Notes: a model not told the origin generated them from the sequence alone. Shown: positions 993-26,904, counted from the first letter of the stretch. The stretch: DNA of 64,000 nt from Tubulanus polymorphus (GCF_964204645.1 NC_134026.1:12051950-12115949), one strand, 5' to 3'. Program-made: numbers and translations.

Positions 993-1086
993 ATGTACTA
1001 TCCTACAATCGTCAAGGTGTGTAATATCAGTACTTGTCCAATGAGATTGCAGAACTGTCGAAAGGGGAGAAATGCCTGAGCAAAGC

Positions 1087-1175
1087 AGTAATTGGAAAGT
1101 GGGCTTTCAGATCAGAGGTCGTGCGGTCGAGACACCACTCATCACCACAAGTAATTTTTTTTCCTAATAAATGGG
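1087..1175 (+). repeat. Left terminal inverted repeat (89 bp)
   Basis: Reverse complement of 18173-18262 apart from a 1-nt indel. Confidence 0.95.
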
Positions 1176-1496
1176 AGATAGAAAAGGATTCTTAGCAACA
1201 ATAAATAACAGAATTAAACCAGCAAAAAACAATTTGAAATAAAAAAGTTAGTTGATGTTACAAAAGAAATTGAACATAAAATATTGAAATTAGAAAAGAT
1301 AAAAACTAAATATGGAGAGAAAGTATCGGCGAATTTAAGCTACTGCAATGTTAGTACATCGCGAGAATTTAAAGTGTTTTTACCTGATAAATGGGTTTCA
1401 TTGAGTACAGAGGAATTAAAAGATTTAGAAGGATTTAAAATAATCTATCATGGGAAAAATGAAGACGGTCATCATGATTTAGAAATTGTTGATTAA
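1171..1496 (+). pseudogene. Small Polinton protein (TKYG...VFLP motif), frameshifted near 1230-1240
   Basis: TAAATG start at 1171 inside the TIR; first frame stops near 1240 and continues as ORF 1284-1496. Confidence 0.65.
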
Positions 1497-2438
1497 ATAA
1501 GAAATAAAAATAATGAATATCTAGAATCCAAAATGACCTTAGTCGTTTTATTGAACAACTACAATCATACAGTCAAACATCTGTTACATGTTATTATAAG
1601 AGAGTGCTTCATTTGAATATTGATCAATCAAACAGGTGTTGCACAACGTTGTTGTTATATTGGATAGCTAGCAGTTATATAATAAGCACGCAGTACATAC
1701 AACACACACACACAGGACAGGAGGATAGTCATTCTCTCTCGTGATTAAAAGGAATATTTCAATGTTTTTACGGTAAGTTTTAGCAAAACCACCCGACTTG
1801 ACTCACAGAGTTTTTAGGGGATAAGCATCCCGTTATTGAGAGGCGCCACGAGATACCTATCCCCAAGCATTTCTACTTACACCCCTGTGACCCACACCTC
1901 ACCAATTCTCCTTCAATGGTTGACAGGAAACACATTATATTAAAGGCGCCTAATGCATTTCCTATTAACCCCTTACCCTCGAAAGGAGGATCGAAAGTCG
2001 AAACTGAAGGAGAACCACGGAGGGTGGACATTTTCGAAATGCCCCTGCAAGCCAAAAAAATATGCTAAAAAAATATATGAAATTTGAAATTATAAATTAT
2101 TCCGAATGAAAAGAATATAAGAATGAAAACTGATAAATGAATTATGGATTTTTAACTTAATTATGATATAATTTTTAATCATATTAGTAATCGATTACCA
2201 TGTTAATTGATTAACAAATTCAAATTCAAATTCAAATAATTCATTTTAGCATCACACCCCACCCAGTGCTGCCATCTTTCAATTTAAGAAAAAACTAATA
2301 ATAAGAAACGACTGTAATACAATATTCAAGTAAAAACAAAATAAATTAATAAAAATAATGAATATCTAGAATCCGAAATGACTTATCTGGACAATTTAAT
2401 TGCTCCGCATAGATAGACAAAAGTAGTGAGATATTCAA

Positions 2439-2834
2439 TTATTTTTTTTGCTTTTTTTCTAAAATATTAATCCATTTTTTTATTATCAATTTTGGAATTT
2501 CAGAAGTATTTTCATTTTTGATAGCATTTGTTTCAGAATTATTTATATCATGAATTTTATTTGATTTCTTATACCAATTACACCCAATCAAAATGAATAC
2601 AATTACAAATCCAACTGTAAAATATAGATATTTATCAAATATTCTATTATTAGAAGGAGTAGAAATAAGAATATTTTCACCATTTTTATTAACATTTTTA
2701 TTACTTATTTTTTCTTTTACAGCTTTTTTATATTCTTGTGATTTAATTCCTAATTGCCGTGACCATTCAATTTGTTTCTGTGATCTCGGTTTTGTCTTCA
2801 CAGTTAATTCCTTCACTTCTTCCACCTCGCTCAT
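2439..2834 (-). CDS. Hypothetical single-pass membrane protein (131 aa)
   Basis: TAAATG start; hydrophobic stretch YLYFTVGFVIVFILIGC. Confidence 0.75.
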   Translation of the reverse strand: MSEVEEVKELTVKTKPRSQKQIEWSRQLGIKSQEYKKAVKEKISNKNVNKNGENILISTPSNNRIFDKYLYFTVGFVIVFILIGCNWYKKSNKIHDINNSETNAIKNENTSEIPKLIIKKWINILEKKQKK

Positions 2835-3372
2835 TTATTATAGAAATATTTTTACTTTCAATATTTGAAAATGTTATAACCCCAGTTGATAATAATGTCA
2901 TAAATCCACCTAATTGAAATGATAAATATCCAATCCATTTATTTAATTCAGTCATAACTAAATAGTCATTTTTTAAATCGGAATATAATCTATTTTCATC
3001 TTCAATTGGTAGTATATAATTACATAATTTACTATAACCTTTTACTACATTTTCTGATATCGCGTCATTAATTCTAGCTGTTCTCGCGGCTTCATAAATC
3101 TTAAATAATCTAATAATTTCATCTGATTTCATTGTATCGAATTCATCATAAGTTAAATTTTTACCGACAAAATTTCTACATTTTCCAGATGCTATTAATA
3201 TTTCTAATTGATGTTTACAGTAAAGATAATATTCATAATTATTATTTGTTGTAACATTATTTAAAGCACCATCATCTGGAATTAATTTGTTTTCTGTTAT
3301 TCCTAAATCATCTAAAGTTTTTTCAATTGGAACATCACCATTTTTAGATTTTATTTTCTTTTCACCTACCAT
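2767..3372 (-). CDS. Hypothetical protein (201 aa) with a C-terminal hydrophobic segment
   Basis: T7-GTTATA-TAAATG start; intact ORF. Confidence 0.75.
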   Translation of the reverse strand: MVGEKKIKSKNGDVPIEKTLDDLGITENKLIPDDGALNNVTTNNNYEYYLYCKHQLEILIASGKCRNFVGKNLTYDEFDTMKSDEIIRLFKIYEAARTARINDAISENVVKGYSKLCNYILPIEDENRLYSDLKNDYLVMTELNKWIGYLSFQLGGFMTLLSTGVITFSNIESKNISIINERGGRSEGINCEDKTEITETN

Positions 3373-3403
3373 TTATATAACAAAAAAATTAGTTGTGATG
3401 TTG

Positions 3404-3641
3404 CAACTAGAATTCAACTAGATTAACAAGCTAGTTGAAATATTGTTGTGTTTGTTTATTTCTTGTTAAATCTAGTTGATTTTTGTTTCAACTACTAACA
3501 ACTAGAATTCAACTAGAATGTAACTAGAATTAAACTAGATTAACAAGCTAGTTAAAATATTGTTAAATCTAGTTGATTTTTGTTACAACTACCAATAACT
3601 AGAATTCAACTAGAATTCAACTAGATTAACAAACTAGTTGA
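3404..3641. repeat. Intergenic array of direct and inverted CAACTAG/CTAGTTG repeats
   Basis: CAACTAGAATT units and CTAGTT(G) counterparts, arranged in larger duplicated blocks. Confidence 0.8.
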
Positions 3642-3643
3642 AT

Positions 3644-4251
3644 TTAAATAAATTCATATTTAAATGGGTGTTGTAATCTAAATAGTAACTTTGATCTTTT
3701 AATATTTTTCAACTTATCCATATATTCATTATGTAAATCATGTGGAATAATATCATTTTCCTCAAGTGCATTTTTCATCGATTTTCTATCTTTATTGTAG
3801 AATAAAACTAGAAATCTAATGTTTTCTCTAAAGTCTTTAACAATTGAATTATATTTTTGATTTAAAACCCATGTTGTTATCCCAAAATGTCTCCCAGAGA
3901 AAGCTAGATAACATAACTCACTTTCTCTGACTTTTGAATCATGTAAATTTGCGCAATCATCTATGATAAATAATGTATTTGATCCTTTATAAATATCAAT
4001 TGCTATTTTTATACAATTATCTAAATTTTCTTTTACTGTTTTAGGATCTAATATAATAAATTTATTTTTCTAGTAATATTTCTATCATAAGTTTGATTAA
4101 ATTCATATGTTGGGCAAAATAATACTATGTTATCAAAATAGTTTTCATAAACAGTATCTAATAAATTTAATATAAAATAAGTTTTTCCACAATTTGTTAC
4201 GCCAGATATTAACATATTATGAGGCTCAAATATAAATAATTCCTTATTCAT
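3644..4251 (-). pseudogene. A32-like (FtsK/HerA superfamily) packaging ATPase with one frameshift near 4065
   Basis: Walker A GVTNCGKT; after the frameshift, Walker B LFIIDD and the SGRHFGITTWVLNQ motif; stop at 3644. Confidence 0.9.
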
Positions 4252-5379
4252 TTATATATTTTTAATTTTACTTGATAATATCCATTCATTAATTTTATCT
4301 GGCCATCCAACCCATTTTACTAAAGAATATTTTTTTCTTTTAATAGTTTTTGTTTTTAATACTTTTTCAATTTTATATTCTTGTTCTAGATTTTCAGTAG
4401 TTAAACTTAATTCTTCTTCGTAAAAGTAGCCATCAACTTCTTCACCATCTAAATCTTCTAATTTATAGACATATGGTTTTGTTGTTATTACCTTTTTTAT
4501 TTTATATATTTCCCTAGTAAAATTTCGATCGTATCCTTTGTCAAATATCTTTTTATACTTAGATATTCTAACATTTTGGCCAACTTTAAATTTAGGTTCA
4601 CCAAAATCATCTACAAGAAATGCTCCATATAAATTATTCCAAACAATTTCAGCATTTTCAGGTTTTCTAGCATCAATAGGTTTCATTCCAATAGAAGAAT
4701 GATAAGAATTATTATATCCTTCTATCAATTTTGGTAAAACATCAATCCATTTAAAAGTATTATTTGCTGTAAAATATTTCCACATTCTTGTTCTTAATGT
4801 TCTATTAAATCGTTCAACAACTGCTGCTTTTTTATCCGATTTTGTTGAAAAATATTTAATATTATGATTGTCTAAGAGTTCATGAACAAGTGAATTATCA
4901 AACTCTTTTCCATCATCAAATTGTATTTTTTCTGGTTTTAGTTTATCATCCGAAAGAAATTTTCTTAAAACATTTGATGTTTGTACAGCATCTTTTCTAT
5001 AAAGTGGGAAACTCCATACATAACGACTAAAAATATCAATTATAATCAATAACCACCAATAATCATCATTATCTTCCTTAACATTTTTCGTATCAATTAA
5101 ATCTCCTTGCCACTGTTGATCTACATAACTTACCATAGTTTTACGAGTTTTATATTTTCTAACAATTTTTTTATGTGTTGTGTATGTTGGTTGTTCTAAC
5201 ATAAATTCATTTATATCTTTATATTTAATTAAATTGTGTGGGATTATCTTATCTAATTTATCTTGTTTTACTTTACGCCATATATTTTTGGTAGAAGAAT
5301 AAGCAACCGAACTCTCAGGGTTGTAATATAAATTTCTTAAATATTGTTCTTTAGTATTAGGAGTTTTTTTACCTCCCAT
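4252..5379 (-). CDS. Retroviral-like (rve) integrase with C-terminal chromodomain
   Basis: WQGDL, IDIFSRY, FDDGKEF and VERFNRTL form the DDE motif; C-terminal YKIEKVL...LVKWVGWPDKINEW is a chromodomain. Confidence 0.95.
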   Translation of the reverse strand: MGGKKTPNTKEQYLRNLYYNPESSVAYSSTKNIWRKVKQDKLDKIIPHNLIKYKDINEFMLEQPTYTTHKKIVRKYKTRKTMVSYVDQQWQGDLIDTKNVKEDNDDYWWLLIIIDIFSRYVWSFPLYRKDAVQTSNVLRKFLSDDKLKPEKIQFDDGKEFDNSLVHELLDNHNIKYFSTKSDKKAAVVERFNRTLRTRMWKYFTANNTFKWIDVLPKLIEGYNNSYHSSIGMKPIDARKPENAEIVWNNLYGAFLVDDFGEPKFKVGQNVRISKYKKIFDKGYDRNFTREIYKIKKVITTKPYVYKLEDLDGEEVDGYFYEEELSLTTENLEQEYKIEKVLKTKTIKRKKYSLVKWVGWPDKINEWILSSKIKNI

Positions 5380-5409
5380 TTATATATCGTTAATTTTAAC
5401 TTTATATTT

Positions 5410-6657
5410 CTAATATTGAATACTATCTAATTGGGAATTTACAATATTTAATTGTGCATCAGATATAATATAAATGTGCATTTTAAAATTTTTGTCTCCT
5501 CTTTTCTTTTTCATGAATAATTGTATTCCATCTTTAGTGTTCTGTAGTTTTTTTCCAGAACCATGTAATGAATTATCCTCTGTTGTTCTAAAATCTAACC
5601 ATAATGCATATTTATTGCCGGTATAATAATCAATTTGATTAATATTACAATTTTCAAATGATTTTACTTTTTCATTCATAAAATGTTTTCTAATTTCTGG
5701 CCATTGATTAATCATTCTCATTCCTTGACAAAATATTTTATTTGCTATTCCTTCGATAGTTATTTCTACTTTTGTTATTTCAGGATTATAATAATTATCT
5801 ACCTTTATTGCGCCATTAGTATATGTTGCAATGGTAAAAAATATTAATATACCTTTAATAGATCTTCTTGGGAAGTTAATATTCTCATTAATTATTTCAT
5901 CATTTGCATTAATAGTTACAGTTTTAAATTTATCAATATAATCATATAATAATGAAAATCCTTGATTGTATTGAGTTTGAATTGTGCTAGCAATATTTTC
6001 ATTAGTTACTGTGTTATATTCTAAACATATATTCGATAATTTATAACCCATATCTTTAACAACGCTAGATAATACAATTTCATTTACAGGAGCAAATGTT
6101 ATCTCAAATATAATATCTTCTTGAATTGCGTATTTATATAAAGGTGCATTATTATTTATCAATTCAAAGTCTAATGGAATTTTATATTTGCTTCCATAAA
6201 TCTTTTTAATCAAATTATCTGTGGCACGAGTTACTATTGCGTCATTAGCTCCTGATCTTAATTTATTATGGTTTTCCGATTGAATACCCTGAAATACCAT
6301 ATTATTTCTATTTTCATTAGTTAACCATAAATCTTTATAATGCATAAATAAATTATAATCATCTAATGAGAAAACTGTTTCTGGACCAATCTTTATTGTT
6401 AATTTTTTAATCAAATATCTCCCAACATTATCGACAACATAATTATTATCATAACCAGTTACTTTTATATCGGCTGATAAATAAATACTATTTGGAACAT
6501 AAAAAGTATTTTGTGTTAATCTAGGAATTGTAACATATAAAGTTTCATCGGGATTAATATTTGAAGGCTTATGTGTAATTATATGATGTGATCTTTCTGC
6601 TTTAATAGCATTAGATATTCTAGAAATCTTAGAAGGACTTATAAAACTCCCACTCAT
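5410..6657 (-). CDS. Major capsid protein (predicted double jelly-roll), 415 aa
   Basis: Size, beta-rich pattern (LIKKLTIKIG, YKIPLDF, YKLSNICLEY, ITKVEITIEG) and context; intact ORF. Confidence 0.8.
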   Translation of the reverse strand: MSGSFISPSKISRISNAIKAERSHHIITHKPSNINPDETLYVTIPRLTQNTFYVPNSIYLSADIKVTGYDNNYVVDNVGRYLIKKLTIKIGPETVFSLDDYNLFMHYKDLWLTNENRNNMVFQGIQSENHNKLRSGANDAIVTRATDNLIKKIYGSKYKIPLDFELINNNAPLYKYAIQEDIIFEITFAPVNEIVLSSVVKDMGYKLSNICLEYNTVTNENIASTIQTQYNQGFSLLYDYIDKFKTVTINANDEIINENINFPRRSIKGILIFFTIATYTNGAIKVDNYYNPEITKVEITIEGIANKIFCQGMRMINQWPEIRKHFMNEKVKSFENCNINQIDYYTGNKYALWLDFRTTEDNSLHGSGKKLQNTKDGIQLFMKKKRGDKNFKMHIYIISDAQLNIVNSQLDSIQY

Positions 6658-6697
6658 TTATTTAACAAAAAAATTAATTATTTATTTTTAATCATGT

Positions 6698-8129
6698 TTA
6701 CTTGATATTTTTTGATATCATATTCACTAACCCAAAAATAATAGCAGTTGCAACTGTAATTAAAAATAAAATAATATGTTCAGCAGCAAAGTTAAGAATA
6801 TTCCCAGCAGATTTCAATATAAAACCAACAATTGATGCAATAATTCCTGGTAAAGCTGAAGCAGATTTTTTAAATAGTTCCCATAAATAATTTGCTAATT
6901 TCTTTAAACCATCTTTAACTTTATCTTGTATAGAATTATTACCTGGGGGTTTATCTGGTTTATTTGGAGTAGGAGTAGATTTCAAAGAATTTGATATTGC
7001 TAAACCAATTGTTGTAAATAACATAGTTACAGCTGTTAGAATTGAAAGAATTGTTATTCCTTCTAATTTAAATAATAACTTTATTCTATCTTTTAATGAT
7101 ATTTCAGAATTTGGTTTAATCAACAAATCTTTAAAAATAACTTTTAATCTATTAATATTATAATCATATGATTCTAATAATAATTTAATTTCTTCTTTCT
7201 GTACTTCTAAATTATCTTTTAAATTATTAATTTCTTTTTCTAAACGTAATTCTTTTTGCCTATATTCTATTTCATCAATTACTTGATGATCTAAATCAGA
7301 CTTTAGTTGTTCTATTTCTTTATTTGCATTAGTTAATTCTTTTTCCAAATACATAAATTTTTTGATCTCTTATACTTTTATTATGTGCAATTTTATCAGC
7401 TTCATTTCTTATACTAATAATTTCTCTAATTGCTTCATCAGAAAATATATTTAAATCTTCTAATTGTTGATCTGTTGCATCAAGTAATCCATTCGGTAAA
7501 AGTTTTTCAATTAGAACTTTATTTGATTTAAGTTTACTAGTTTTAGAAGTTTTATTCTGTTCAGAAGTTGTTTCTGTTTTTGATTTCTTTTTGATTATTT
7601 CAAATAATTCATTAATTCTTTGTTTAAATACGTCTATATCATTATCAGTTAATTCTTGTTTTATAACATCAGTTATTACATTACTATTACTTATTCTTTT
7701 AATTCTATCTGGATCTAATTTTCTCAAAGTTAATTTTGTTATTATTTTTTTTTAATAAGTGATATCAATATAATAATCATCTTTCAAACGATAATAACAT
7801 TTACCATTATCTAAAAATTTTAATTGATCTGCTAAAAGTCCAACGTCTTCATCATTTATGTTAAGTTTAGATTTTTCAATTAAATCTTCTAATTTAGGTA
7901 TTTTGTTTAAATTATCTAATTCTTGTTTTACTAAATCTGGGTCTAAATTTTCAGGATTTAATTGTGATTCTGAATTTTTAATATAATCAGGCATATTTAA
8001 ATTATTATTATATTCTGGCTCATTGCCATCATTAAAACTTGTTTCACTAAAATCAGGTTGTTGTTCATCAGTTATACCAGGTTCATCAAAAGGATCCATT
8101 CCAATATCTTCTCCACCTTCTACATCCAT
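6698..8129 (-). pseudogene. Coiled-coil protein with acidic N-terminus and C-terminal membrane helices; one gene broken into three ORFs
   Basis: Single TAAATG start at 8129; in-frame TAA at 7752-7754; frameshift near 7340. Confidence 0.7.
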
Positions 8130-8145
8130 TTATATAATAAAAAAA

Positions 8146-9536
8146 TTAAAATTTAAGATATAATATTCCTCCTATAACAATTCCTATACAAGTTTAAGCT
8201 AATTTAGTATTTTCATGTAATTTATTATCATTATCAGTTTTAATTATATCATGTTGAATATTATCAGTTTTAATATTTTCTGTACTATTGTAATCTTTTA
8301 TTTTGGAATCATTATCCAATTTAATATTCTTAGTTTTAGTTTCTGTTGATTGAATATGTTTTTTATTTTTTTCACTTTCCATTAATTTTGGAGCAGTAAT
8401 TATCTTTTTATTTATATCATTCAATCCAAATGAATTATTTATTGTTGCAGTTTTAATTAGATTATTATAACCAATTATATTTCCCATCTTTAATACTAAA
8501 TCATTAGAAATAATTAATAGATTAGGGCCTATACAATAATTTAATCTAATATGTGATTTATCTAAATAATTTTGATATCTTACAATGTTTTCTGGAATCG
8601 ATCTATTTTTATCATTATAAATGGAATCTTCAAATAATACTTTAAATTGTTTCTGCGTATCAAATGATGTATTTAAATTTCCAATTATTGGGGATCTTGT
8701 TTCAACTTGCGCACCTAAAATACATATCAAATAAGTTCTAATAGATTGATTTATTCTTTGTATACCTGATTGTGTAAAACCTTCATTATTTTCTAAAATG
8801 AAATAAACCCAACCATTATTGTTTTCTTGTTTTAAATTATCATAAAATGTCGGTAATTTATTGAAATTTAATGTTTCTAAATCATTTGTTTCTATTTTAC
8901 CATAACCTCATTTATTACTATAGATGTTATAAAAACTATTAAATGGTATGGAAGTGCACAATATTCTGCAATCTTTTTAGGGCAAGGAAGTGATCTTATT
9001 GTTCCAATTTTTGTTCTAAAATCAGAATTATTTATATCTATATTAAATTCATTACAAATTTTATAAAACTTTGATAAATTAATATTATTATCTTATTCTT
9101 TAAAATACCTAGATCCTGGTAAAGCGCACTCTAATTCATTTAATATTATTCTGATTTGAAAGTATGTATGAAATCTAAATAAACTTTGAATTAATTTATA
9201 TTTAGAATTATTCAAATGATCATTCCAACTAATTCCACAACCTGTTGTTGCACAATAAACAGCAAAATTTAATTGGTTTTGCCAATACTTCATATTAGAT
9301 TTTAATAACCATTGTTTTTCATCTTTCAATTTTTTAATATTAATTAAATATACATGAAATATATTTTCCATCTTTGCATTAAAATTATTAGTTTCAGTAA
9401 CATAAATTTCTAAATTAGTTAGTAATGAATCTAAAACTTCATTTCTATATGTAATATCTTTATTAAAATCTATTGCTGGAATATTATATTTAATTGATTT
9501 ATTATATTGGAAAGCTTTTGGAAAACTATCTACCAT
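8146..9536 (-). pseudogene. Conserved-looking hypothetical protein (WQNQLNFAVYCATTGCGIS motif) with C-terminal hydrophobic tail, disrupted
   Basis: TAAATG start at 9536; fragments 9093-9536 and 8194-8730; reading through the stop at 8194 gives TCIGIVIGGILYLKF. Confidence 0.65.
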
Positions 9537-9552
9537 TTATATAATTAAAAAA

Positions 9553-9987
9553 TTAATAATTCATTAATTCTTTTAATAATTTATCTTGTTCTTCAACTGT
9601 TATATGACCATTTAAACTTATTATATAATCTAGTGTATTCTTTAATTTATTAATTCCTTTTATATTAGTTTTAATTTTTTCTTTATTACTTTTTATATTT
9701 AATTTTGAACTTATACCAGTTAATACACTTGAACTTAATCCTAATACACCAATTGAAATAGCTAAAGGTGTTAATGGGCTGAATATTGCTAAAAATGTTA
9801 TTACAGAACTAATTGTAACCGAACCACTTATAATCAAATAATATATAATTTTACTTTTTAAATATTTTTTCTTTTTTATCTTTAAGTCACTTTCAAATTC
9901 TAATATTTGTTTTTCTAAATATGTTTTTAATTTAGTTTTATTTATATCATGAGGAATAATATCAATACTATCAACTTTATCTTCCAT
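9553..9987 (-). CDS. Hypothetical two-TM membrane protein (144 aa)
   Basis: T8-CTAAA-TAAATG start; central hydrophobic hairpin. Confidence 0.75.
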   Translation of the reverse strand: MEDKVDSIDIIPHDINKTKLKTYLEKQILEFESDLKIKKKKYLKSKIIYYLIISGSVTISSVITFLAIFSPLTPLAISIGVLGLSSSVLTGISSKLNIKSNKEKIKTNIKGINKLKNTLDYIISLNGHITVEEQDKLLKELMNY

Positions 9988-10006
9988 TTATTTAGAAAAA
10001 AAATTA

Positions 10007-10429
10007 CTAATTAGTAAATTTATATGCTACAAATATAACAATAACTGTTCCACCTAAAATCCAAATTATTTCATATTTCTGTTGTTCTTTACTTGGGGTG
10101 TAATAATCTGATAATTTAGGTTTGTATTGATGTAATTTTTCTTTATTTGTTACGGCGTTATATAAACTCATTGCATCATCAACTGATTGAAAATCTCTAT
10201 GTGAAATCTTCTGATCATATAATTCTTTATTGATGTAATCCATATAGTTTTGCCTCCTTTCTCTATATTCTTCTGCTGCTTTATTGTATTTCTCTAATGC
10301 TAAGTTATGTCTTCTTTGTTCTCCTAATGAACTATTTTTATCAATATGTTTAAATAAATATCCACCACCAGTAAATGCTAAAGCGTTAACAATTGCCGAT
10401 CCTATAATAGTTATAATTGCAGAAGCCAT
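10007..10429 (-). CDS. Hypothetical membrane protein (140 aa) with hydrophobic N- and C-termini
   Basis: TAAATG start; IGSAIVNALAFTGGGYLF, central helical region, C-terminal TM. Confidence 0.8.
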   Translation of the reverse strand: MASAIITIIGSAIVNALAFTGGGYLFKHIDKNSSLGEQRRHNLALEKYNKAAEEYRERRQNYMDYINKELYDQKISHRDFQSVDDAMSLYNAVTNKEKLHQYKPKLSDYYTPSKEQQKYEIIWILGGTVIVIFVAYKFTN

Positions 10430-10453
10430 TTATTTAGTAAAATAATTACGCAT

Positions 10454-10675
10454 TTATATGGGAGGAATATATTTTTGTTTTTCCAAATAATCAATAGTTA
10501 AATTAGATAAAGTAATTGCTAATGTTAATTTTAAAATATCATTTATATCAAATCTATCAACATTAACACTTCCCATTTTAAATACTTTTTTTAATACCAT
10601 TGAATAACCAACAGTTCCAACTGATAGTAATGCGCCATTATATAATCCAGTTATTATCCACTTATTATCACTCAT
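10454..10675 (-). CDS. Small hydrophobic protein (73 aa)
   Basis: T9-GATAAA-TAAATG start; fits the tight gene packing. Confidence 0.7.
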   Translation of the reverse strand: MSDNKWIITGLYNGALLSVGTVGYSMVLKKVFKMGSVNVDRFDINDILKLTLAITLSNLTIDYLEKQKYIPPI

Positions 10676-10682
10676 TTATTTA

Positions 10683-11033
10683 TCAAAAAAAAATACTATC
10701 ATCAAAATATTTAGTTAACTTATTTACGATTAATTCAACATTTATTTCATTACTAGTTTCATTTGTATATATTTCAATTATTATTTTTTTAATATCATCG
10801 ATGATAAAATCTTCAGCTAATTCATAAAATCTTAAAGATTCTCTAATTAAATTAGTAATCTTTTCTACATTTAAAGTTTCTTTATCTATTGTTTTTTCAT
10901 ACTCAAATGTTGTTTCATTTGAAAATGCAATATTTTTGATATGTGTAATTACATCATTAATGTTAAATTTCATTTCTTTCTCACGTTTAAAATCAAATCC
11001 AAAACATATACTCGGTCCAACAGTTATATTCAT
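10683..11033 (-). CDS. Hypothetical protein (116 aa)
   Basis: T6-CACTATA-TAAATG start. Confidence 0.7.
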   Translation of the reverse strand: MNITVGPSICFGFDFKREKEMKFNINDVITHIKNIAFSNETTFEYEKTIDKETLNVEKITNLIRESLRFYELAEDFIIDDIKKIIIEIYTNETSNEINVELIVNKLTKYFDDSIFF

Positions 11034-11049
11034 TTATATAGTGAAAAAA

Positions 11050-11812
11050 TTACTCTTTACATCTTATAACTAATTCATAAATTACGGGAAAGTTATTCAA
11101 ATCAATTAAATAACCATTATGATTTCTTATTTCTAATTTAAAATTATTGAAATGTGGAATACAAGGTTTGAAATCATATTCAGTTAAATTATAATTTATT
11201 TGAGTTCCAAATTGTTTGACATTTTTTAATGGTAAAATATTTAATAAACCAGAATTACAAATTGTATCTTTAGTTGCTTCAAATGTTTTTGTTGGGTCAA
11301 TCAAATTGCAATAAATATAAAAATGTGTAAAAGGTATTAAGTTTGATCTACCTTCTGCGTATGCTGTAACAATATCTGGGTTAATTCCTAACAGTTTACC
11401 TAAAGGTTTTCTTACTTTAAATTTAAATTGTTCGTCATTAGCTAACCTAATCTTTATTTTATTAGAACTATCACTTTTTAAAATTCTAATACTAAATCCG
11501 GAATCACTTCCTAATTTAGCTCGAGCTTTTCTATTAATTTTTTGTGCTAATGTATCTAAACTATATAATCCTGGTTTTAAATATATATATAAAAAACCAT
11601 TTATTCCTTTTTTTGTAAAAGATTGAAAAAATTAAATGTTCTAGACTTTTATCCTTTATATTATAAAAAGAATTACATAAACTTATATTAACTAATTTTA
11701 AATCTACACAATTCTTAAATTCTCTATTTAATTGAACTAGTAAATTATGTGATTTATAATTTGTAAGTTTTCTAGAATCAACAAATATTCTGTATTCTTT
11801 TAATTCTACCAT
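11050..11812 (-). pseudogene. Minor capsid protein (penton, single jelly-roll), frameshifted near 11590
   Basis: N-terminal IFVDSR...SFYNI, internal FKPGLYS and FYIYCNLI, C-terminal LEIRNHNGYLIDLNN match the penton pattern. Confidence 0.75.
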
Positions 11813-11880
11813 TATTTATAACATAAACAAATTACCGCTCATCACTAAAAATTAATTTTAATAAAATTTTTCCTAAATAA

Positions 11881-13197
11881 ATGGATGAGAAGATAGCATG
11901 CGAAATTTGTGGTGAACTTCTAAGAAAAAGTAATATGGCTCGACATATGAAAAAACATGATGAAAATTATAAACCCCCTAAACTAAACTGTCCAAAATGT
12001 AATAAATTATTCTCAAGAAATTATGTTAAAAAACATTCAGAGAAGTGTAAAATTAATGGCGCAACGGCTAATGTTGATAGTAATGAAAGTAATAGTAATT
12101 CTGCTGAAGTTGAACCTGAAATTATTTGGAAAAGACCTTTCTTATTCTATGACAAGGATAATATAAAAGATCATATCTGTGAGCCTTGTCAAGTAAAATA
12201 TAGCCCTGAAAATAAAGAAGATTGGGAGAATCATCAATTTCGTAAAGCACATATAGATAAAATTTCTAATAAATTTGAAACTGAATTCAATGAAAGAAAA
12301 AATAATTTATTAGAAAAAATAAAATATGAGAAAACGTTACCAGATAATAAAGAAACAGTTGAAAAGTTAGAAAAACAATATAATGAATTAACAAGAAAAA
12401 CATATTATTGTAAATATTGTCAATTGATTATTACAACAAGTAATTCAAATCTACATAATAGAACAATAAAACATAAAGAAAACGTAAGAAAATACCAAGA
12501 GCTTAATGAAGATCTATTACCAATACATTATAAACAAAAATGCCCACAATGTAGTTATGCAACCTTAAGACAAGAAGGTACTGTGTTATTTTGTAATGAA
12601 TGTGGATGGCAAAAGAATTTATGGAGTGAAGAAAAAACTAGAAATTTTCTCATAGATCCAAAATTAAATTATCTAGATGAAATTTTTAAAATATTTTCTA
12701 TAGAAGATCATACACCAGAATATATGCAATGGCTTGAAAAAATGAAAATAATAGAAAATAAAAATGGTGAAATAACTAAAAAAGATATTATAAAAACAAT
12801 TATTCCGTCAACATTTAACACAAAACCAAAGAAAATGTATTTATATTTATTATTTAACGATTATTATGAAAAACCTAAATTAACAAAAGAAGATATGAAA
12901 AATATAAAAAAAATATTCAAACAAATATTAATGTATCATTTGGAAAATAGAATAACAGATTCAATAAATTATGAATTCTTTTTAAATAAGATTGTAGATT
13001 ATTTATACATAGATATTATAATTCCATTTGATGAATTAACAAACAAAAAGAAACAAAGAGAGCGAGATGAAATGTGGAACAAGATAGAACTTTATTTAAA
13101 TAAGAAAAATGAAATGGAAGAAGAACCTAAACAATTAAATGAAAATGAAGAAGCCAATAGTGATTTCGAGTATGATGATATTGATTTTATGTTTTAA
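11881..13197 (+). CDS. Multi-zinc-finger protein fused to a poxvirus A2/VLTF3-like late transcription factor domain
   Basis: N-terminal C2H2/C2HC fingers; then a CPQC-x13-CNEC ribbon, NF...KL.YL, IFKQIL...EN...SINYEFFLNKIVD and a C-terminal W, resembling vaccinia A2 ([13 protein letters not shown], recalled from memory). Confidence 0.8.
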   Translation: MDEKIACEICGELLRKSNMARHMKKHDENYKPPKLNCPKCNKLFSRNYVKKHSEKCKINGATANVDSNESNSNSAEVEPEIIWKRPFLFYDKDNIKDHICEPCQVKYSPENKEDWENHQFRKAHIDKISNKFETEFNERKNNLLEKIKYEKTLPDNKETVEKLEKQYNELTRKTYYCKYCQLIITTSNSNLHNRTIKHKENVRKYQELNEDLLPIHYKQKCPQCSYATLRQEGTVLFCNECGWQKNLWSEEKTRNFLIDPKLNYLDEIFKIFSIEDHTPEYMQWLEKMKIIENKNGEITKKDIIKTIIPSTFNTKPKKMYLYLLFNDYYEKPKLTKEDMKNIKKIFKQILMYHLENRITDSINYEFFLNKIVDYLYIDIIIPFDELTNKKKQRERDEMWNKIELYLNKKNEMEEEPKQLNENEEANSDFEYDDIDFMF

Positions 13198-16100
13198 TAA
13201 CCATAAGGTAATGTTTTTATACCATCACCTGAAATATGTCTTTTATCATCAAATGGATTTAAACTAGTTTTTTCAACTTCATTAATGTACATCTCATGAT
13301 CTTCTGATCTTATACAATTCATTTTGTGTTTCATTACAATTGAGTTATATAAACACTTTATATAATCTTGAAATTCTATATGTTTATCAACCACATGTTT
13401 TGTTATTCCTTTTAACTTTTTAGCTTCATGATCTTTTGTTCTATAACTATACATTTTACTTCTTATCCCAACAAATTCAATCATTTCATCACCCCCTAAT
13501 TCATCTTTAAACTTACCAGGAATCTTTTTATTATCATTGCTAAATAGTTCATGATCTTTGGGATAATTGCTAAAATCAAAATGATGTTTTAATGTTTTTA
13601 AGTCTTTTGTTATGTCATTTGTCTTGATTTTTAGTATGTAACTGTCAGTATTGAAGCAAATTAATGGAAATCCACAGTTAAATGTATCATCTTCAGTTGA
13701 TAAATCATAAACATAATCTGATGGGTTATATATTTCAAATAAATCTTTAACTTCTTCAGTTAAATCTTTTTCTGTGTGGCTTAGATTAAAGCAATTTGGT
13801 TTAGATTTAATCAATCCAATATTCATATTGAAGCCTATTGAATTACATAATATATTTAACCCTGATATAGCAACTTTTCCTTTCTGTGCAAAGGTTATCT
13901 TTTTATCCTTTGTAAATTTTTTAGCACCATCTGCTGCATAGAATCCAATGAAGAACCATTTTCTTAAAATATTTTTTGCATTTGATACATAATCTGGAAC
14001 TATCTTTTCTTTTGTTGAAGTATTACTTTTCACTATTGCATGAATATAGAATTCATCATTATATTTTATAGCAAAATCTTTAGGATTATTTACAAGTATT
14101 CTATAAACTGCTGATGATTTCATAACATCCATGATTTTAAATGTTTTATTTGGATAAACTTCTTCACAGAATTTCTTAATTCTTTCTAATAATTTTAAGT
14201 CTTGATTGCATAAATACCAACAATATTTATTACCCCAAACATAATTATACACACCTGCTGAACCATCACCCATGAAAAATCCTTTGATAAAATATTCTTT
14301 TTCTTCTAATGTTTCGGGTTCTATGTTATAAATATTATCAATTATTTCATCAAATGACATATGATTCATTCTTTGGAAAAATCTTTTATGTAATAATTCA
14401 TCTCCAATTTTTATATCAGTTGGTTTTATTTCATCGCCATTTCGTTTAATTAAACTATGATCTTCTGTAACATCTACAAACCCTAATTTAGTTCTAACTC
14501 TATAGATTTTCTTATTTGTTTTATGCCTAATAATATTCTTTAATTTTTTCCATCCATTTCTTGTCCAAACATCCATTAAACCATTTATTTGTATTAATTC
14601 TTTTTCACCATATGAAATATAACATTCATTTTGTTTTGGAATTATTTCTGAAATTCTTCTTATCAATATTTCATAATTACATTTTAATAATATTGGGGTG
14701 TCAGCTGTTACAGAATCAAAATATAATATTTCAATATGCTTTTCCCCAAAAAGTGGTTGTAAAACATTATAATAAAAATCATACATTAATAATTTTGATA
14801 CTTCTAAAACAGTTGAACCAATGAATATAGGTTTATTAAATTTCATTGACGTTCTTTTTAATTTAACTGCTGTTCAATAATCTTCAAATCTTTTATTTCC
14901 TAAATGTCTAGGACTTGATTGTAAATGTCTTAATCTTTCAGAATTATTTACTAATTCAATATCATTTCTATTTCTAATATTTTCACATGTTTTACCATAA
15001 AAACTATTATTCATTAATTTGAAGAAATCTTTTTCAAAATCTGTTTTTGATATTGTTCTCCGTTGAGTATTGAAATCTATATATTTTTCTAACCACTTCG
15101 ATTGATTAAATTCAATATATCTATGTACTTTCTTTAATTTCATTCCTTGTTTTAGATAAAATTTTAACATTCTATAATGAACAATATAATTGTATTTATT
15201 ATTTTGAGTAAGTATTAATTTTTCTGTAAAAACATGATCTTTCGGTTTTATTTTCTTCTGGTATTCACTTAAATAACTATCATCTACGGTTAAATGTTCT
15301 GGGCAATAAGGTAAGTTTCTTGTTTTAAACTTTATATTTTCAGGATATTCTAAATCAACTACAAAGAAATAACCAATTGGCGCTTCATCTTTTAAACTCG
15401 CAATTGCGCTTTCCCAATCAGTTTTATCATCATTTTCAACTTCTGTTCATATAAAATTTTTGTATGGTTGAGGTTGCATCATTGCCCAACCATATAAATT
15501 ATTGGCGTCAATATATAATAATTTATATTCATCATTTGCTTTAAAATATCTATCTCCCATAACACCACTAATTCCACCTCTAATTGATTTTTCAAATAAT
15601 AAAATCATATCTGGTTCTTTTAATAAATCTTATTCTACATTTGTATATTTTAAACCACATTGCCAGGTTAAACCAGGACTAGAGTAGCAATAACAAGGAT
15701 CAACATTAAAATGATTCAAATTAACTTCTCTAAATTTTTCAAATATGTCAGCCAATTTCATAACATCTGATTATAAATATAAATCAACTAATTCACCATG
15801 ATTTTTCATCTTAAAATGGTTCCAAATATTTAATGTTCTATTAAACACTTCGTCTTTCACATACTCCTCTTTTAATTGATCATAAAATTGATCTTTTAAT
15901 AATTCTGTTACATTAAAATCATTGTGTGTTTTATAAAATGAATAAGGAATTGCGCCTTTATATCTCAATAATTTAAAATCTTGTTCATTTGGATAATAAT
16001 ATCGAGTTATAACAAAATCATTATCAACTAAACTTTTTGATAAATTATCTAATGAACTTGCTAGAAATCTATAAGAATCTAAAAATCTAATGCAACCAAA

Positions 16101-18177
16101 TTGAAATGAAATATAATTTTCAGATGTTTTAGCTAATAGTTTAAAATCATATTTTCTTACATTTACACCATTCATAGCATTATATTCTTCTATTTCTTGA
16201 TTAATTGCGCCCAATTTTCCCGATAATTGTTTTATAAATAGATGGGTATCATAGCCTGATAAATTATGAAATAATATTGGTACGAAATTAACTTTCTTAG
16301 CTTGTAAATTGCAATCTTCATGAGCAGCTCCACGATATTTTGAATTTAAATGATCATGATCTCTAACTTTTTTATCAAATGAATAAAAACGTTTTTCACA
16401 ATAACAACAATGAGTTGCATAATTAAAATCAATTTCAAAATCATTAACTACATTTTCACCTCTAAAAGAAATATATTGACTTTCATATAATTCAGGATAA
16501 TTTGATTTTATATAAATTCCATAAGCAGCAGCTCTTTGATGAACTTTTTTAATTGTATTTATAATTGGTGGGTCTTGTATTGTGTCTTCATTTAATTCAT
16601 TTCCTTTATCCATTGATTTTAATAATTGCTTTTTGTTATATATTTCTTTTCTATCTTGATCAGTTAATTCTTTATTCAACGATTCAAAATCCCCATAAAT
16701 TACAAATGGAACAATATTCTTGAATTTATGATTAGTAAATTTCAATTTATAATCTTTTTCTGTTGGCATTATTAATTTACAAAAATCTTTATTATCACAT
16801 AATTCTTTATGTTTTAATAATGTATTCTCAGTCATAAATTTAGATAAACATTTTCTACATAGATAAATTTTATGATGATGATCACTTTCTGTTCTAAAGA
16901 ATAAATCAATTTGTTTTAACCACATATAATGTTCATTTTCATCTTTTTTGTAATATAACAAATCTATAGCATTTTCATCATCATAATATTCTGTTAAATA
17001 TAAAGCTTCCAATGTATAATCTTTAATATTTTCACCTTTTGTCTTTGGTAATTGCATTAATTCGAATACATTTATTTTTAAATTATTGACTTTTTCTATT
17101 TTAGAAATCATTTTTATAGTTACTGGATATTGATCAATTTTATATAATGTTTCATATTTCCGATAATCTGTTATTCTACAAACATTTTCCTGTGTTGGAT
17201 GTAAGCAACTAATAATTGACCATAGAAAACATTTATTATCTTCATTTTGAATATTTATTACTGCTTTTGTTGTAAATGGTAATTTAATATAAGATGATGC
17301 TTTAATATCCTTTTCTGTTGTAAAGTTTGAATCATTTTTAAACATTTTATTACTTTTTGATGTTTTGTTTCTTTTTGTATTATAAACATTTAAATCTAAA
17401 TATATAATTTCATTCAATGTTAAGCCAGAACCCTCAAAATATCTTTCTTCAATATGACGTTTAAATTCATTTAATATTTTTTTCTAACTTCTCTTTTATT
17501 TGTGTTTTTGAAATTATTTCTTCAGAGAGTGTTTGAATATTATAATTCATTTTTTCTTCTGACTTTATAAAACTTACTTTCCCAGAGATACTAATTTTTG
17601 GATTTTCAACATCTGTTATCAAATATAGTATTTTTTCTATTATTTCATTAAATTTACTATAATCTTCTATTCTTGTTCCTTTAAAAAATCTAAATATAAT
17701 AGCTGCAGGACCAATTTTACTATGTAATGTTTCTAAAATTTCAATTGTATCTTTTATTTCTAGTGAATCAATATAATTTCTAACATTTTCCATGTAAGGT
17801 TTATTTGAAATGGATTTAGTTTTTGAATTTGGTTTTTTTACTTTTTGAGGTTTATCGTCAAAATAATCTTTTCCTAAAACATTATTGCTCAAATTTTGGT
17901 GGTGTTTTTGTGATTCGAGATGTCTATTATAATTCCTTTTTGTTATAAACTCATTACAAACTTCACATTTTATTTCATCCACATTCATATTTTCTAATCG
18001 TTCTTTTCTTTCATTGGAATTTTCTGAAGTTTCAAAATCTATTCCATTTTTTATATGATTTGCAGTTTTTTCATGTCGTGATTTTTGGGATTTATCGATG
18101 TATTTTTTACAATATTGACAATCATATTGATTTTTATTAACATTATTGTTTTCTGGCTGGTGTTCATTCTCCCCCAT
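13194..18177 (-). pseudogene. Protein-primed family B DNA polymerase with N-terminal zinc fingers and an intein; 1 frameshift and 4 in-frame stops
   Basis: Exo motifs YGDFES, FHNLSGYD, FLDS; motif A YIDANNLYGWAM; motif B KLMNNSFYGK; motif C YFD/TDS; KMYSY, KLKGI and DDKR. Frameshift in an A7 run near 17480; stops at 15771, 15630, ~15447 and 14874. Confidence 0.95.
13650..14714 (-). mobile_element. Intein (355 aa) with LAGLIDADG homing endonuclease in PolB motif C
   Basis: YFD|SVTADTP ... VTEDH (block B) ... FIKGFFMGDG and FFIGFYAADG ... YVYDLST ... LICFN|TDS; removal restores YFDTDS. Confidence 0.95.
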
Positions 18178-18262
18178 TTATTAGGAAAAAAAATTACTTG
18201 TGGTGATGAGTGGTGTCTCGACCGCACGACCTCTGATCTGAAAGCCCACTTTTCCAATTACT
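18173..18262 (-). repeat. Right terminal inverted repeat (90 bp)
   Basis: Inverted copy of 1087-1175; includes the pPolB start codon. Confidence 0.95.
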
Positions 18263-18285
18263 CAAAGCTAATCACATTGCGAAAC

Positions 18286-19330
18286 TGGGATCGAGGTACT
18301 GTGTGTCGCGTGGATTACCCTTATACAAAGTGGCTGGGATCGAGGTGCTGTGTGACGCGTGGATTACCCTTATACAAAGTGGCTGGGATCGGGGTGCTGT
18401 GTGACGCGTGGATTACCATTATACAAAGTGGCTGGGATCGAGGTGCTGTGTGACGCGTGAATTACCCTTATACAAAGTGGCTGGGATAGAGGTGTTGTGT
18501 GTCGTGTGGATTACCCTTATACAAAGTGGCTGGGATCGAGGTGCTGTGTGTCGCGTGGATTACCTTTATACAAAGTGGCTGGGATCGGGGTGCTGTGTGT
18601 CGTGTGGATTACCCTTATACAAAGTGGCTGGGATCGAGGTGCTGTGTGACGCGTGAATTACCCTTATACAAAGTGGCTGGGATCGGGGTGCTGTGTGACG
18701 CGTGGATTACCCTTATACAAAGTGGCTGGGATCGGGGTGCTGTGTGACGCGTGGATTACCCTTATACAAAGTGGCTGGGATCGAGGTGCTGTGTGTCGCG
18801 TGGATTACCCTTATACAAAGTGGCTGGGATCGAGGTGCTGTGTGACGCGTGGATTACCCTTATACAAAGTGGCTGGGATCGAGGTGCTGTGTGACGCGTG
18901 AATTACCCTTATACAAAGTGGCTGGGATCGGGGTGCTGTGTGACGCGTGGATTACCCTTATACAAAGTGGCTGGGATCGAGGTGCTGTGTGACGCGTGAA
19001 TTACCCTTATACAAAGTGGCTGGGATCGGGGTGCTGTGTGACGCGTGGATTACCCTTATACAAAGTGGCTGGGATCGGGGTGCTGTGTGACGCGTGGATC
19101 ACCCTTATACAAAGTGGCTCGGATCGGGGTGCTGTGTGGCGTGGGGATTACCCTTATACAAAGTGGCTGGGATCGGGGTGCTGTGTGGCGTGGGGATTAC
19201 CCTTATACAAAGTGGCTGGGATCGAGGGGCTGTGTGGCGTGGGGATTACGCTTATATAAAGTGGCTGGGATCGAGGTGCTGTGTGTCGCGTGGATTACCC
19301 TTATATAATATTGCTAGGATCGAGGTTTTT
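18286..19330. repeat. 49-bp tandem minisatellite, about 21 copies
   Basis: Unit GGCTGGGATCGAGGTGCTGTGTGACGCGTGGATTACCCTTATACAAAGT repeated head-to-tail without spacers. Confidence 0.95.
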
Positions 19331-23870: not shown

Positions 23871-26313
23871 GTTAGAATCAATAGCAATTAGGGTACATAT
23901 TTGCGGCTCGGGTTATAGCGGATTATATGAATATATAGTGTACTATCATTGTAAAAGGGTTTATTCAATAAGAATTATAAAACAGAGATTTACTGCAGTT
24001 CCATAGTTCAATCATGGCTACCTCACTTGGTCCTTGATCCAATTACTACACCAGAACAATCTTCAGAATTCAACCCTTTGGCTTCAAAGCGACAAAGGGT
24101 TTCATTTGAACAAGATATAGTGAACGAAGTCTCCATAACTATGGCTCGTGACATAGCTGAAGCTAAAGATAGATTAAGATCCTTAGAAGAACAGAATAGC
24201 AATCTAAAAAGTAGAAATGATTCACTTGAAATGGAGAATTTGCAATTGAAGCAAAAACTGAGAAATTGCAATACGAGCTGCACTAATTTCCTCATGAAAA
24301 GGAAAGAAGCTTCAGCAAAATTATGGAAATCATTTGGAAGATATTTGGATTTAATATCAACAAGTGAGGCTCAGAATGTTGCCAGGCTTCAGTCCAAACT
24401 GCAGAAAGCCAAACAAACTATCAGGCAACTTCAGAGGAATAAATCAAAAACAAAATCCCGTTCACTATTATCCAGATCTAGCTTGAAAGAAAAACATTCC
24501 CAGAATTTAAATGTATCTCTTTGGAATATCAAGAAAATCTGTGTGGAAAGGTAAAAAGGATTTCATCTCTTAATTCAGAAGTTAGTCATCTACAGGATAA
24601 ATGTTTGACTAGAAAATAGGGAGAATCAGGTAGGCCTATTAGGCACTAAAATGGACGGAAGAACGTATTTGCATAAAATTCGTGAAGCTAGCTATCATCT
24701 GCAGAACTTAGGAATTTCTCAAAAAAATGTTTTAACTGTCATTAAATTAGTAAATTCTGCTCTCACCGATACTGAACTATCTGGAAATATCCCTTCGTAT
24801 ACAACTCAGAATCAATTCACTAAAGAAATGAAAGCTGCCTCTAGGTCTCAGGTTCAAGAAACCATTGAGAAAGAAGATAATCTCACAGTCAAATACGATG
24901 GAACTACAAATTAACTAGGACATCTTGTAGAAGTTGAGGTAGCCACCAAACAAGGCGACTTACTAATGGGACTAACCATTCAAGCCGGTGGAACTGCTGA
25001 TGAATATACTAAAACCATCGTTAAAGCATGCAATAGAATCGATTCTTCGAATTCTCAGAATTCAGTAGATTCCAACTCTACTTTGAATAAGATCAAAAAC
25101 ACCATGTCTGATCGTGTCACTACGAATACAGCGATTAAAAAACAATTAGAAAACTTGATAGGCCATAACTTGAATAACTTTATATGTGCCATGCACCCAC
25201 TAGAGGCAATGGCAGGCGACTGTGAGAAAGTGATCAAGATATATGAGGCATCAGTTGACATAGCCAGCAAAAAGATTGGCGTCAATTATCCCTTTCTACA
25301 TCGCGGTGAGAGCAACACAGTACTACAGTCGGAACAACCAGTAAATTATTTCATGACACAAAGTACAACTGTAGCACTGAATTGAGAAGTTTTCTTCATT
25401 CTAAAGGAATCGTACCTGAAACAGAAAGAAGAAAATCAGTAGGCCTACTTTATAATTGTTTTGTCGGCAATAGGTTTCATGTAGTTTTCCTCTCATGCGG
25501 TTCATTATACCATTATAAATCAAGAATTATCGAATTTTTCAATGACACTTTCAGTCCTCGAAATGTTGTTCAAACAGTAATAGGGGTAATAGGCTTTCAT
25601 ACCAAAGGTCGAAAGGTCGAGCTCATAAAAAATGAAAAATATGAAAATAATAACAATTTCTATTTGAATTAGTAGCGAAACTCATATAAAATGAAAAATA
25701 ATTCTCGCACACTCGAATTTATTTTTCATTTTTACTCGCTAGAAAAAAGTGTGAGTAAAGTGTGAGTGAAATAAATTCGAGTGTTTGAGAATTATTTTTC
25801 ATTTTTTATGAGTTTCACTACTAATTCAAGTAGAAATTGTTATTATTTTCATGTTTTTCATTTTTAATGAACTCGCCCCTTCAACCTTTGATATGAAAGC
25901 CTATTATCCCTATTACTCTTAAAATATTCATATACATGAATAAAATATATATGAATAACATATAAATTGATAGATTATTCAATATAAAAGTGTGAGTGAA
26001 ATAATTCATATTTAAAACATTGAATATTTATATTTGAATGAGTTTTAATAAAAATTTTGTTATAAAAATGAAGAAAGAAGAAGAACCCAACTTTAAAATC
26101 GAAATCAATGAAACCAATAAATCATTTTCACAGTTTTACATTAAAAATTATATTTCAGCAACAAATTTAGTGTTCGCAATACATTTTAAAATACATTATT
26201 TAATTACTGAACTAGTAGATACTTTTGATAATGGTGTTAAAAATCCTAAAGTATTCAATACAGTTTTAAATTTTAAAGGAACTTTAGATGAAAACATAAT
26301 TAATATTGATAAA

Positions 26314-26853
26314 TTTATCATTTCAACTGTCAAACAATTTATCATTTCAACTGTCAAACAATTTATCATTTCAACTGTCAAACAATTTATCATTTCAACT
26401 GTCAAACAATTTATCATTTCAACTGTCAAACAATTTAACATTTCAACTGTCAAACAATTTAACATTTCAACAGTCAAACAATTTATCATTTCAACTGTCA
26501 AACAATTTATCATTTCAACTGTCAAACAATTTATCATTTCAGCTGTCTTATCATTTCAACTGTCAAACAATTTATCATTTCAACTGTCAAACAATTTATC
26601 ATTTCAACTGTCAAACAATTTATCATTTCAACTGTGAAACAATTTAACATTTCAACTGTCAAACAATATATCATTTCAACTGTCAAACAATTTATCATTT
26701 CAACTGTCAAACAATTTATCATTTTAACTGTCAAACAATTTATCATTTCAACAGTCAAACAATTTAACATTTCAACAGTCAAACAATTTATCATTTCAAC
26801 TGTCAAACAATTTATCATTTCAACTGTCAAACAATTTATCATTTTAACTGTCT
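26314..26853. repeat. 24-bp tandem repeat, about 22 copies
   Basis: Unit ATCATTTCAACTGTCAAACAATTT. Confidence 0.95.
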
Positions 26854-26904
26854 ATTAGATATTTAAATCATTTAACTCAATTCAATAATTATAATGTAGA
26901 ATTG

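Follow-up and report, generated by a model that had tools for sequence, protein, structure and literature searches.

Two open questions about animal Mavericks (Polintons) are by what means they are transcribed and whether they live as autonomous viruses, as transposons or as satellites. Both are raised by a 17.2-kb element at positions 1087–18262 of a 64,000-nucleotide (nt) stretch of Tubulanus polymorphus DNA (hereafter the window), in which nearly all genes begin with a motif resembling the late promoters of poxviruses. The element is an integrated Maverick/Polinton, since it has terminal inverted repeats (TIRs), a 6-bp target duplication, a DNA polymerase B of the protein-primed type (pPolB), an rve integrase, an A32-like ATPase and a capsid gene. 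An earlier note on this DNA had counted the motif at 14 of 15 gene starts and proposed that the genes are read by a pox-type polymerase rather than by host RNA polymerase II (Pol II). Based on the late-type motif at nearly all starts, a pox-type VLTF3 gene and the failure to detect an RNA polymerase, we consider it probable that the element is a virophage-like satellite whose genes are transcribed by the late machinery of a poxvirus-like helper.

The start motif within the element

All 15 start coordinates were checked, and TAA stands directly before the ATG at 14 of them, the remaining start (11812) reading TAAATA immediately followed by ATG. Elsewhere in the element, counting both strands, there are 657 ATGs, and 38 of them (5.8%) have the same arrangement (Fisher p = 6.5e-16). 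The starts at 1171 and 18177 are two copies of one TIR, so that the number of independent starts with the motif comes down to 13 of 14, at which the enrichment is retained (p = 7.9e-15). A run of five Ts followed after 5–7 nt by TAAATG is present at 10/15 starts and at only 2/657 other ATGs (p = 4e-17). The conserved stretch is longer than TAAATG, as 14/15 starts read WATAAATG and 11/15 read TAWATAAATG (vs. 1/657 other ATGs), while a T is found 12 nt before the ATG (position −12) at 11 of 13 window starts. This extended motif recurs within the element as a 29-nt repeat family. Of the starts themselves, those at 2834, 3372, 4251, 9536 and 11033 align to residue 1 of homologues in the close metagenomic relative L003, and those at 9987 and 10429 also to residue 1 of homologues. 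No early-type AAAnTGA motif was present within 70 nt upstream of any of the 15 starts, and the pox early terminator TTTTTNT showed no pattern at the gene ends of the element.

The motif might not be a promoter at all, but a by-product of AT-rich, compact packing (stop-start overlap, an upstream AATAAA poly(A) signal or translation context) or a dead relic. The element does have a GC content of ~23%, the present copy has decayed, and both TAAATAAATG and TAATAAATG include AATAAA. Packing is also tight, although the claim that most intergenic gaps are below ~35 nt narrowed to 9 of 14 gaps of ≤ 35 nt once gene ends were redefined. However, TAA is the stop codon of the upstream gene at a single start (4251, gap 0), AATAAA is absent from 6 of 13 starts, and the motif is also found at terminal and divergent starts that have no same-strand gene upstream. 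Together with its persistence in relatives at 44% GC and across 51–75% capsid identity, and its absence from equally AT-rich outer relatives (see below), this leaves such an origin very improbable. A reading of TATATAAA as a Pol II TATA box was likewise rejected: Pol II starts 25–30 nt downstream of a TATA box, and the resulting transcription starts would lie within coding sequence.

Conservation of the motif in metagenomic relatives

A metagenome scan yielded 30 related loci, all of them partial contigs with automatically called starts. We defined as the clade the 15 loci with a capsid identity of at least 51%, and as outer loci 8 more distant ones, while the short, weak matches L024–L030 were excluded from the counts. 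The conservation that the earlier note had proposed checking is borne out, with TAAATG at 53 of 63 distinct starts in clade loci and at 1 of 31 in outer loci. The AT content is not the cause of this split, because the motif is kept in clade loci with a GC content of 0.30–0.44 (21/23 starts) and absent from outer loci with a GC content ≤ 0.33 (0/18). In a 40-row capsid tree, the 14 rows labelled TAAATG fall on one branch (support 100/98), five labelled rows lack the motif, and 21 rows without DNA are unlabelled; L014 was counted as TAAATG though its capsid start reads TAAATGA followed by ATG. The motif therefore appears to have been gained once on this tree.

The best-kept upstream base in the clade is the T at −12, i.e., 10 nt ahead of the initial A in TAAAT, which is present at 50/53 starts and at 39/122 TAAATG occurrences that are not starts. 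At position −3, 50 of 57 clade starts have a T, whereas a favourable Kozak context has a purine there. Divergent gene pairs share 20–30 nt with a TAAATG on each strand, forming back-to-back promoters (L001:5548–5568, L009:2017–2046, L010:370–399, L011:213–238 and L012:788–819).

A VLTF3-like gene in the element

The open reading frame (ORF) at 11881–13197 (+ strand; 438 aa; T5-TAAATG start) has N-terminal zinc fingers and a C-terminal A2L-like domain at about residues 216–420, and is newly recognised here as a predicted, divergent VLTF3, the A2L-type late transcription factor of vaccinia. Its zinc ribbon and helical domain, a combination that is presumably TFIIB-like, match VLTF3 both by sequence and by predicted fold. 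In the ESM Atlas, 29 of 30 matches of the domain were VLTF3 clusters (score 0.95), and Foldseek placed the VLTF3s of cowpox and of the D. longicaudata entomopoxvirus on top (E 2e-6), with those of other nucleocytoviruses close behind (E 1e-4 onward). Phmmer searches of 1.84 billion representatives gave five matches, comprising three proteins of no named family that span the domain (the N-terminus of the L003 gene being matched by one of them), one chance match to a zinc ribbon, and P0135, the sole member of the VLTF3 family. This protein carries PF04947 and the A2L zinc ribbon and is 60–63% identical to named betaentomopoxvirus VLTF-3; the window domain itself is 39% identical to Betaentomopoxvirus amoorei VLTF-3 over 74 aa. 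A word-index search found no relatives of the domain, and the PDB held no solved VLTF3 by sequence and no match at E ≤ 0.001 by structure.

The element's VLTF3 is nearer to that of poxviruses than to those of the other giant viruses with which it was compared. A profile from which pox rows had been left out recovered 6/6 entomopox VLTF3s at 25–43 bits, while 23/23 non-pox ones stayed at ≤ 7.8 bits. In a 14-row tree, the element and the pox rows are split from four non-pox rows at 97/96, with the element branching outside the six entomopox rows on long branches. When ORFs of the clade and the window were compared with 151 virus loci, the single match was that of VLTF3 to L165. Two VLTF3-like proteins and two clade capsids sit on contigs of equal size (P0134/P0025, 12,994 nt; P0138/P0121, 16,883 nt), and this size match suggests that VLTF3 travels with other clade members.

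Comparison with gene starts of poxviruses and other viruses

The defining sequence of vaccinia late promoters is TAAAT, in most cases with a G after it that overlaps the start codon; the T at the 10th nucleotide upstream is conserved in them and missing from intermediate promoters (PMC11980589), and the T-rich core of the late promoters lies 5–7 bp before TAAAT (PMC5294985). The upstream T of the clade occupies this vaccinia-late position, within 1 nt of the published count. Among TAAATG starts of other viruses the T at −12 is much rarer than in the clade, being found at 13/30 in six iridovirus-like loci (p = 4e-7 vs. 50/53), 6/10 in the giant-virus bin G003 (p = 0.01) and 5/11 in G004 (p = 4e-4). 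The iridovirus-like label was assigned from gene content, the records having been reached by an IMG/VR pattern scan. Two entomopox loci have TAAATG at 15/39 starts. Of all the DNA compared, that of the Polinton starts agrees best with the vaccinia late pattern as published, the viruses sampled including entomopoxviruses but no chordopoxviruses; since the entomopox loci are weaker in this respect, the likeness in the T-run is to the published vaccinia promoters only.

These counts also bear on the idea that the element is a satellite of a non-pox nucleocytovirus (an invertebrate iridovirus or a pithovirus-like, asfarvirus-like or egovirus one) whose late starts have TAAATG or TATA, with the pox-type VLTF3 as separate cargo. 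Such starts do exist outside poxviruses: in the iridovirus-like loci L151, L152, L156 and L162, AATAAATG is found at 28/80 gene starts, with AATAAA a few bases before many others; the full T-run motif occurs at single genes of giant-virus bins (L170, L173); and the late promoters of African swine fever virus are described as TATTT and TATATA (PMC5294985), while 6 of 13 window starts read ATATAAATG. Apart from the rarity of the T at −12, however, the spacing to the ATG varies in non-pox loci, where AAAATG is common, and the VLTF3s of G003, G004 and G006 reach at most 7.6 bits against the element profile. On a sample without asfarvirus or egovirus DNA, we regard a non-pox helper as distinctly unlikely. 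A pattern scan for a helper carrying the full motif returned nine loci, which, judged from their ORFs, are seven phage-like chance matches and two giant-virus bins. Whole-bin counts of the full motif were weak (G003, 12 vs. 4 in the control; G004, 17 vs. 27; G001, 3 vs. 2), and a literature search on TAAATG in iridovirus late genes returned poxvirus papers only.

A probable satellite of a poxvirus-like helper

Pfam profiles were searched against 18 ORF pieces of the element, and no RNA polymerase or capping enzyme was among the matches, six short ORFs and two broken genes being without a family. In the satellite reading, the element's DNA would reach the cytoplasmic factory during helper infection, where the helper polymerase would start in the AAA of TAAATG and slip, producing 5′ poly(A) leaders and replacing the unfavourable T at −3 with an A. 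All genes, including those for the DNA polymerase, integrase and VLTF3, would be switched on together in the late phase. Vaccinia DNA polymerase is an early gene, while that of the element sits behind the late-type motif. Since the element has no detected RNA polymerase of its own, and its genes for replication, integration, structure and regulation share a single promoter class, it may stay silent until a pox-type virus brings the late machinery. Its VLTF3 might then top up or compete with the A2-type factor of the helper, favouring the element's promoters, after which the element would replicate by its own DNA polymerase, package into its own capsid and re-integrate. The helper may belong to a deep pox lineage, because the VLTF3 of the element falls outside the group of six entomopox rows.

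A different account would make the element an autonomous nuclear virus whose VLTF3 directs the host's Pol II to promoters with TAAATG, both motif and factor having been borrowed from a poxvirus. VLTF3 is indeed present in ~30% of two clusters of Zephyrvirus Polinton-like viruses (PLVs; 10.64898/2026.06.19.733378), and the VLTF3 model gave weak Foldseek rows to chains of the Pol II initiation complex (E 0.15 or worse); a further parallel is that of mriyaviruses, cited below. However, the genes for VLTF3, polymerase and integrase have the motif that also precedes the capsid genes, and an early class was not found, which would leave an integrated copy without an obvious way to start. Furthermore, Pfam detected no VLTF2 or TBP homologue among the element's ORFs, six of which have no family, and the T of the motif is placed as in vaccinia, a position important to the viral machinery. 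We therefore hold a helper-independent life to be unlikely.

The proposal that a pox-type polymerase and not host Pol II reads these genes is thus strengthened by the clade-confined motif, the vaccinia-late position of the T and the pox-type VLTF3, but a VLTF3-steered Pol II remains its rival and several observations weigh against a poxvirus-like helper. TAAATG alone is not pox-specific, as it is also common in the iridovirus-like loci (30/88 starts) and in giant-virus bins (G003, 10/37; G004, 10/29), while in the entomopox loci the upstream T is less frequent than in the Polinton (9/15; T5 run at 2/15). Regarding the factor, the C-terminal 235 aa of ORF 11881 missed PF04947 up to E 5, the E-value of the phmmer match P0135 is only 2e-4, and the VLTF3 model, with a predicted local distance difference test (pLDDT) score of 79, came from an alignment that included five entomopox rows. 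In the tree, the non-pox VLTF3 set collapsed to four distinct rows; neither asfarviruses, egoviruses, mriyaviruses nor PLVs were represented in this set, and chordopoxviruses were also missing from the tree. The domain was found in 0/30 metagenome loci, all being partial and L003 ending after the N-terminus of the gene. The integrated copy is decayed, and no helper sequence was found in the virus and metagenome DNA scanned, the host genome not being part of that search. Finally, VLTF2 and VLTF3 are both kept in mriyaviruses, presumably nuclear viruses that have no RNA polymerase (PMC11253617).

Other genes and genomic surroundings of the element

Six of the 15 genes are broken in the present copy (1171, the ATPase, 6698, 8194, the putative penton and the polymerase), while the integrase, the capsid and ORF 11881 are open. 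The left TIR (1087–1178, + strand) contains the T-run/TAAATG start of the first gene, and the right TIR (18170–18262, − strand) the start of the polymerase gene; the repeats are ~90 nt long, their arms matching at 99% (1096–1178 and 18170–18252). The target-site duplication CAAAGC flanks them at 1081–1086 and 18263–18268.

The polymerase, a pPolB with N-terminal zinc fingers (13194–18177, − strand), has several breaks, passes the PF03175 cut-off on one piece (E 3e-6) and has a T8-TAAATG start. Its YxD/TDS motif is interrupted at 13650–14714 (− strand) by a full, 355-aa intein with a LAGLIDADG endonuclease domain (PF14890, PF14528; junctions YFD/S and N/TDS), which the relative L007 lacks. As a clue to the helper the intein was set aside, since its nearest ESM Atlas clusters are a mixture of phage, bacterial and giant-virus ones and name no helper. 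The word "intein" was not found in the available texts of Starrett et al. (PMC8502044) or Barth et al. (PMC11296320).

The other genes of recognisable function lie on the − strand. The A32-like packaging ATPase (3657–4251; PF04665, E 6e-6) is broken near 4051–4069, the TAA of its TAAATG start being the integrase stop. The open, retroviral-type integrase with a chromodomain (4252–5379; PF00665, E 6e-10, 39.6 bits; PF00385, E 7e-4) has a TAAATG start without a T5 run. The open major capsid protein (5410–6657; 415 aa; T7-TAAATG start) has no direct Pfam match, and its identification comes from 1305 homologues, one of which carries PF16903, which we take to be a capsid N-terminal family. The sole named eukaryote among the capsid homologues listed is a bivalve (39%). 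No relatives of the capsid or the integrase were found in IMG/VR. Several Bartonella assemblies contain, on contigs of 0.5–1.6 kb, capsid homologues with 56% identity (P0044 and its cluster), which are likely contamination from an animal host; P0044 groups within the TAAATG clade of the capsid tree. A putative penton (11051–11812; homologue L003:565) is broken near 11564–11631, and its label is unconfirmed, the single-sequence model (pLDDT 39) being uninformative and too poor for a structure search. In L003 a deoxynucleoside kinase with the same promoter (10343–10981, − strand; PF01712, E 2e-31) is located between the penton-like and VLTF3 genes.

No function was assigned to the small first gene (1171–1497, + strand), which has a T8-TAAATG start, is broken near 1223–1242 and is 73% identical to L003:125 over 90 aa. 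The same holds for three conserved genes on the − strand: a 201-aa ORF (2767–3372; T7-TAAATG) and two genes in three pieces each, at 6698–8129 (T7-TAAATG; homologue L003:4328) and 8194–9536 (T6-TAAATG; homologue L003:2996, 69–75%). Also on the − strand are a 131-aa ORF with a hydrophobic stretch (2439–2834; TAAATG without a T5 run), conserved ORFs of 140 aa (10007–10429; T4-TAAATG) and 73 aa (10454–10675; T9-TAAATG), a 116-aa ORF (10683–11033; T6-TAAATG), and a 144-aa ORF with two membrane helices (9553–9987; T8-TAAATG). The latter is weakly SLATT-like, its orthologue L003:2541 matching PF18142 at E 0.0013, below the cut-off.

Non-coding repeats occur between ATPase and ORF 3372, where a palindromic stretch rich in CAACTAG/CTAGTTG is repeated (3400–3660), and past the stops of the convergent genes 1171 and 2834, where a 35-nt repeat is found at 1503–1537 and 2348–2382; read depth is low in the 840 nt between these two genes. 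Raw genomic reads with the same species label reach a depth of 138–934 on the element, compared with 52 in its left flank, and on the right 532 reads pass from the element into mixed flanking sequence (agreement 0.35). In one run (X1), contig depth summed over the element greatly exceeds that of the flank. The element is thus a multicopy family, although the flank is possibly repeated itself, so that the depth ratio yields no copy number. A read joint from 1080 to 18263, with six shared letters, was present in 3/4 runs. The right end adjoins a host tandem array of ~20 copies of a 49-bp unit (18285–19320). Further along the window, an ORF start rich in AT (MSFNKNFVIK...), which contains a short tandem repeat, is duplicated at 26038–27552, the start at 26038 lacking TAAATG. 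Remnants at 206–727 (−), 23955–25385 (+) and 53650–54770 (+) are presumably pieces of a retrotransposon gag, a transposase-like gene and a PIF1/Helitron-type helicase.

Relation to known systems and implications

The element shares its pPolB, rve integrase, capsid, A32-like ATPase, TIRs, 6-bp duplication and 17-kb size with known Mavericks/Polintons (Polintoviricetes; the adintoviruses of Starrett et al., PMC8502044), to which it adds uniform vaccinia-late-type starts and a pox-type VLTF3. In the available part of that paper, the word "promoter" was not found, and a mimivirus-like VLTF is named where a figure legend deals with MELD viruses that have other replicases. A cysteine protease, typical of Polinton group 1 while group 2 is more variable (10.64898/2026.06.19.733378), had no Pfam match in the 18 ORF pieces. 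The virophages mavirus and Sputnik (Lavidaviridae) are likewise small integrating dsDNA viruses, and virophages have the late promoter in common with their helper (PMC6428243); they differ in their protist hosts, known mimivirus-type helpers, motif and capsid lineage. Promoter matching has served as a helper clue for virophages (PMC6401483, 10.64898/2026.07.28.741278), a transpoviron with pacmanvirus promoters is on record (PMC11788076), and egoviruses have donated genes to parabasalid polintons (10.1101/2024.03.23.586382).

By description, a parallel in lifestyle is offered by the Polinton-like PLVs found in entomopoxvirus occlusion bodies and proposed as poxvirus hyperparasites (Barth et al. 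2024, PMC11296320). These are ~12 kb long and have a cysteine protease, with no integrase detected in the two PolB elements and a tyrosine recombinase in the others, and a term search of the available main text found no promoter analysis. With vaccinia the element shares the TAAAT-then-G over the start codon, the T ~10 nt upstream, and the zinc ribbon plus ~200-aa helical domain of VLTF3/A2L (PF04947, PF08792). The yeast linear plasmids pGKL1/2, to our knowledge, have neither capsid nor integrase. They are also pPolB elements with a pox-like TAAAN initiator but supply RNA polymerase and capping enzyme from genes of their own, and 5′ poly(A) leaders have been shown for them as for vaccinia (PMC6211774). 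Vaccinia A2L is an intermediate gene (PMC11980589), while the VLTF3 gene of the element has a late-type motif before it, and its product is joined to N-terminal zinc fingers. No description of pox late promoters in Mavericks was found in the literature searched, which omits most subscription papers and supplements.

The start motif is confirmed: it is real, it extends across a clade within a known element family, and what it implies is unusual and can be tested. We give a little under even chances to the broader view that this widespread animal Maverick clade represents endogenous virophages of poxviruses, set up entirely for late transcription of the pox type and with a captured A2L-type factor that seizes the helper polymerase, marking hosts of an unsampled deep poxvirus lineage and possibly serving as an inherited anti-poxvirus defence. 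With a fixed vaccinia-type promoter at nearly every gene, the sequence by itself would suffice to sort Maverick clades according to their likely helper. The pox-type VLTF3 speaks for contact with some poxvirus lineage beyond the sampled entomopoxviruses, and genomes that carry the clade may therefore show where unknown invertebrate poxviruses should be sought.

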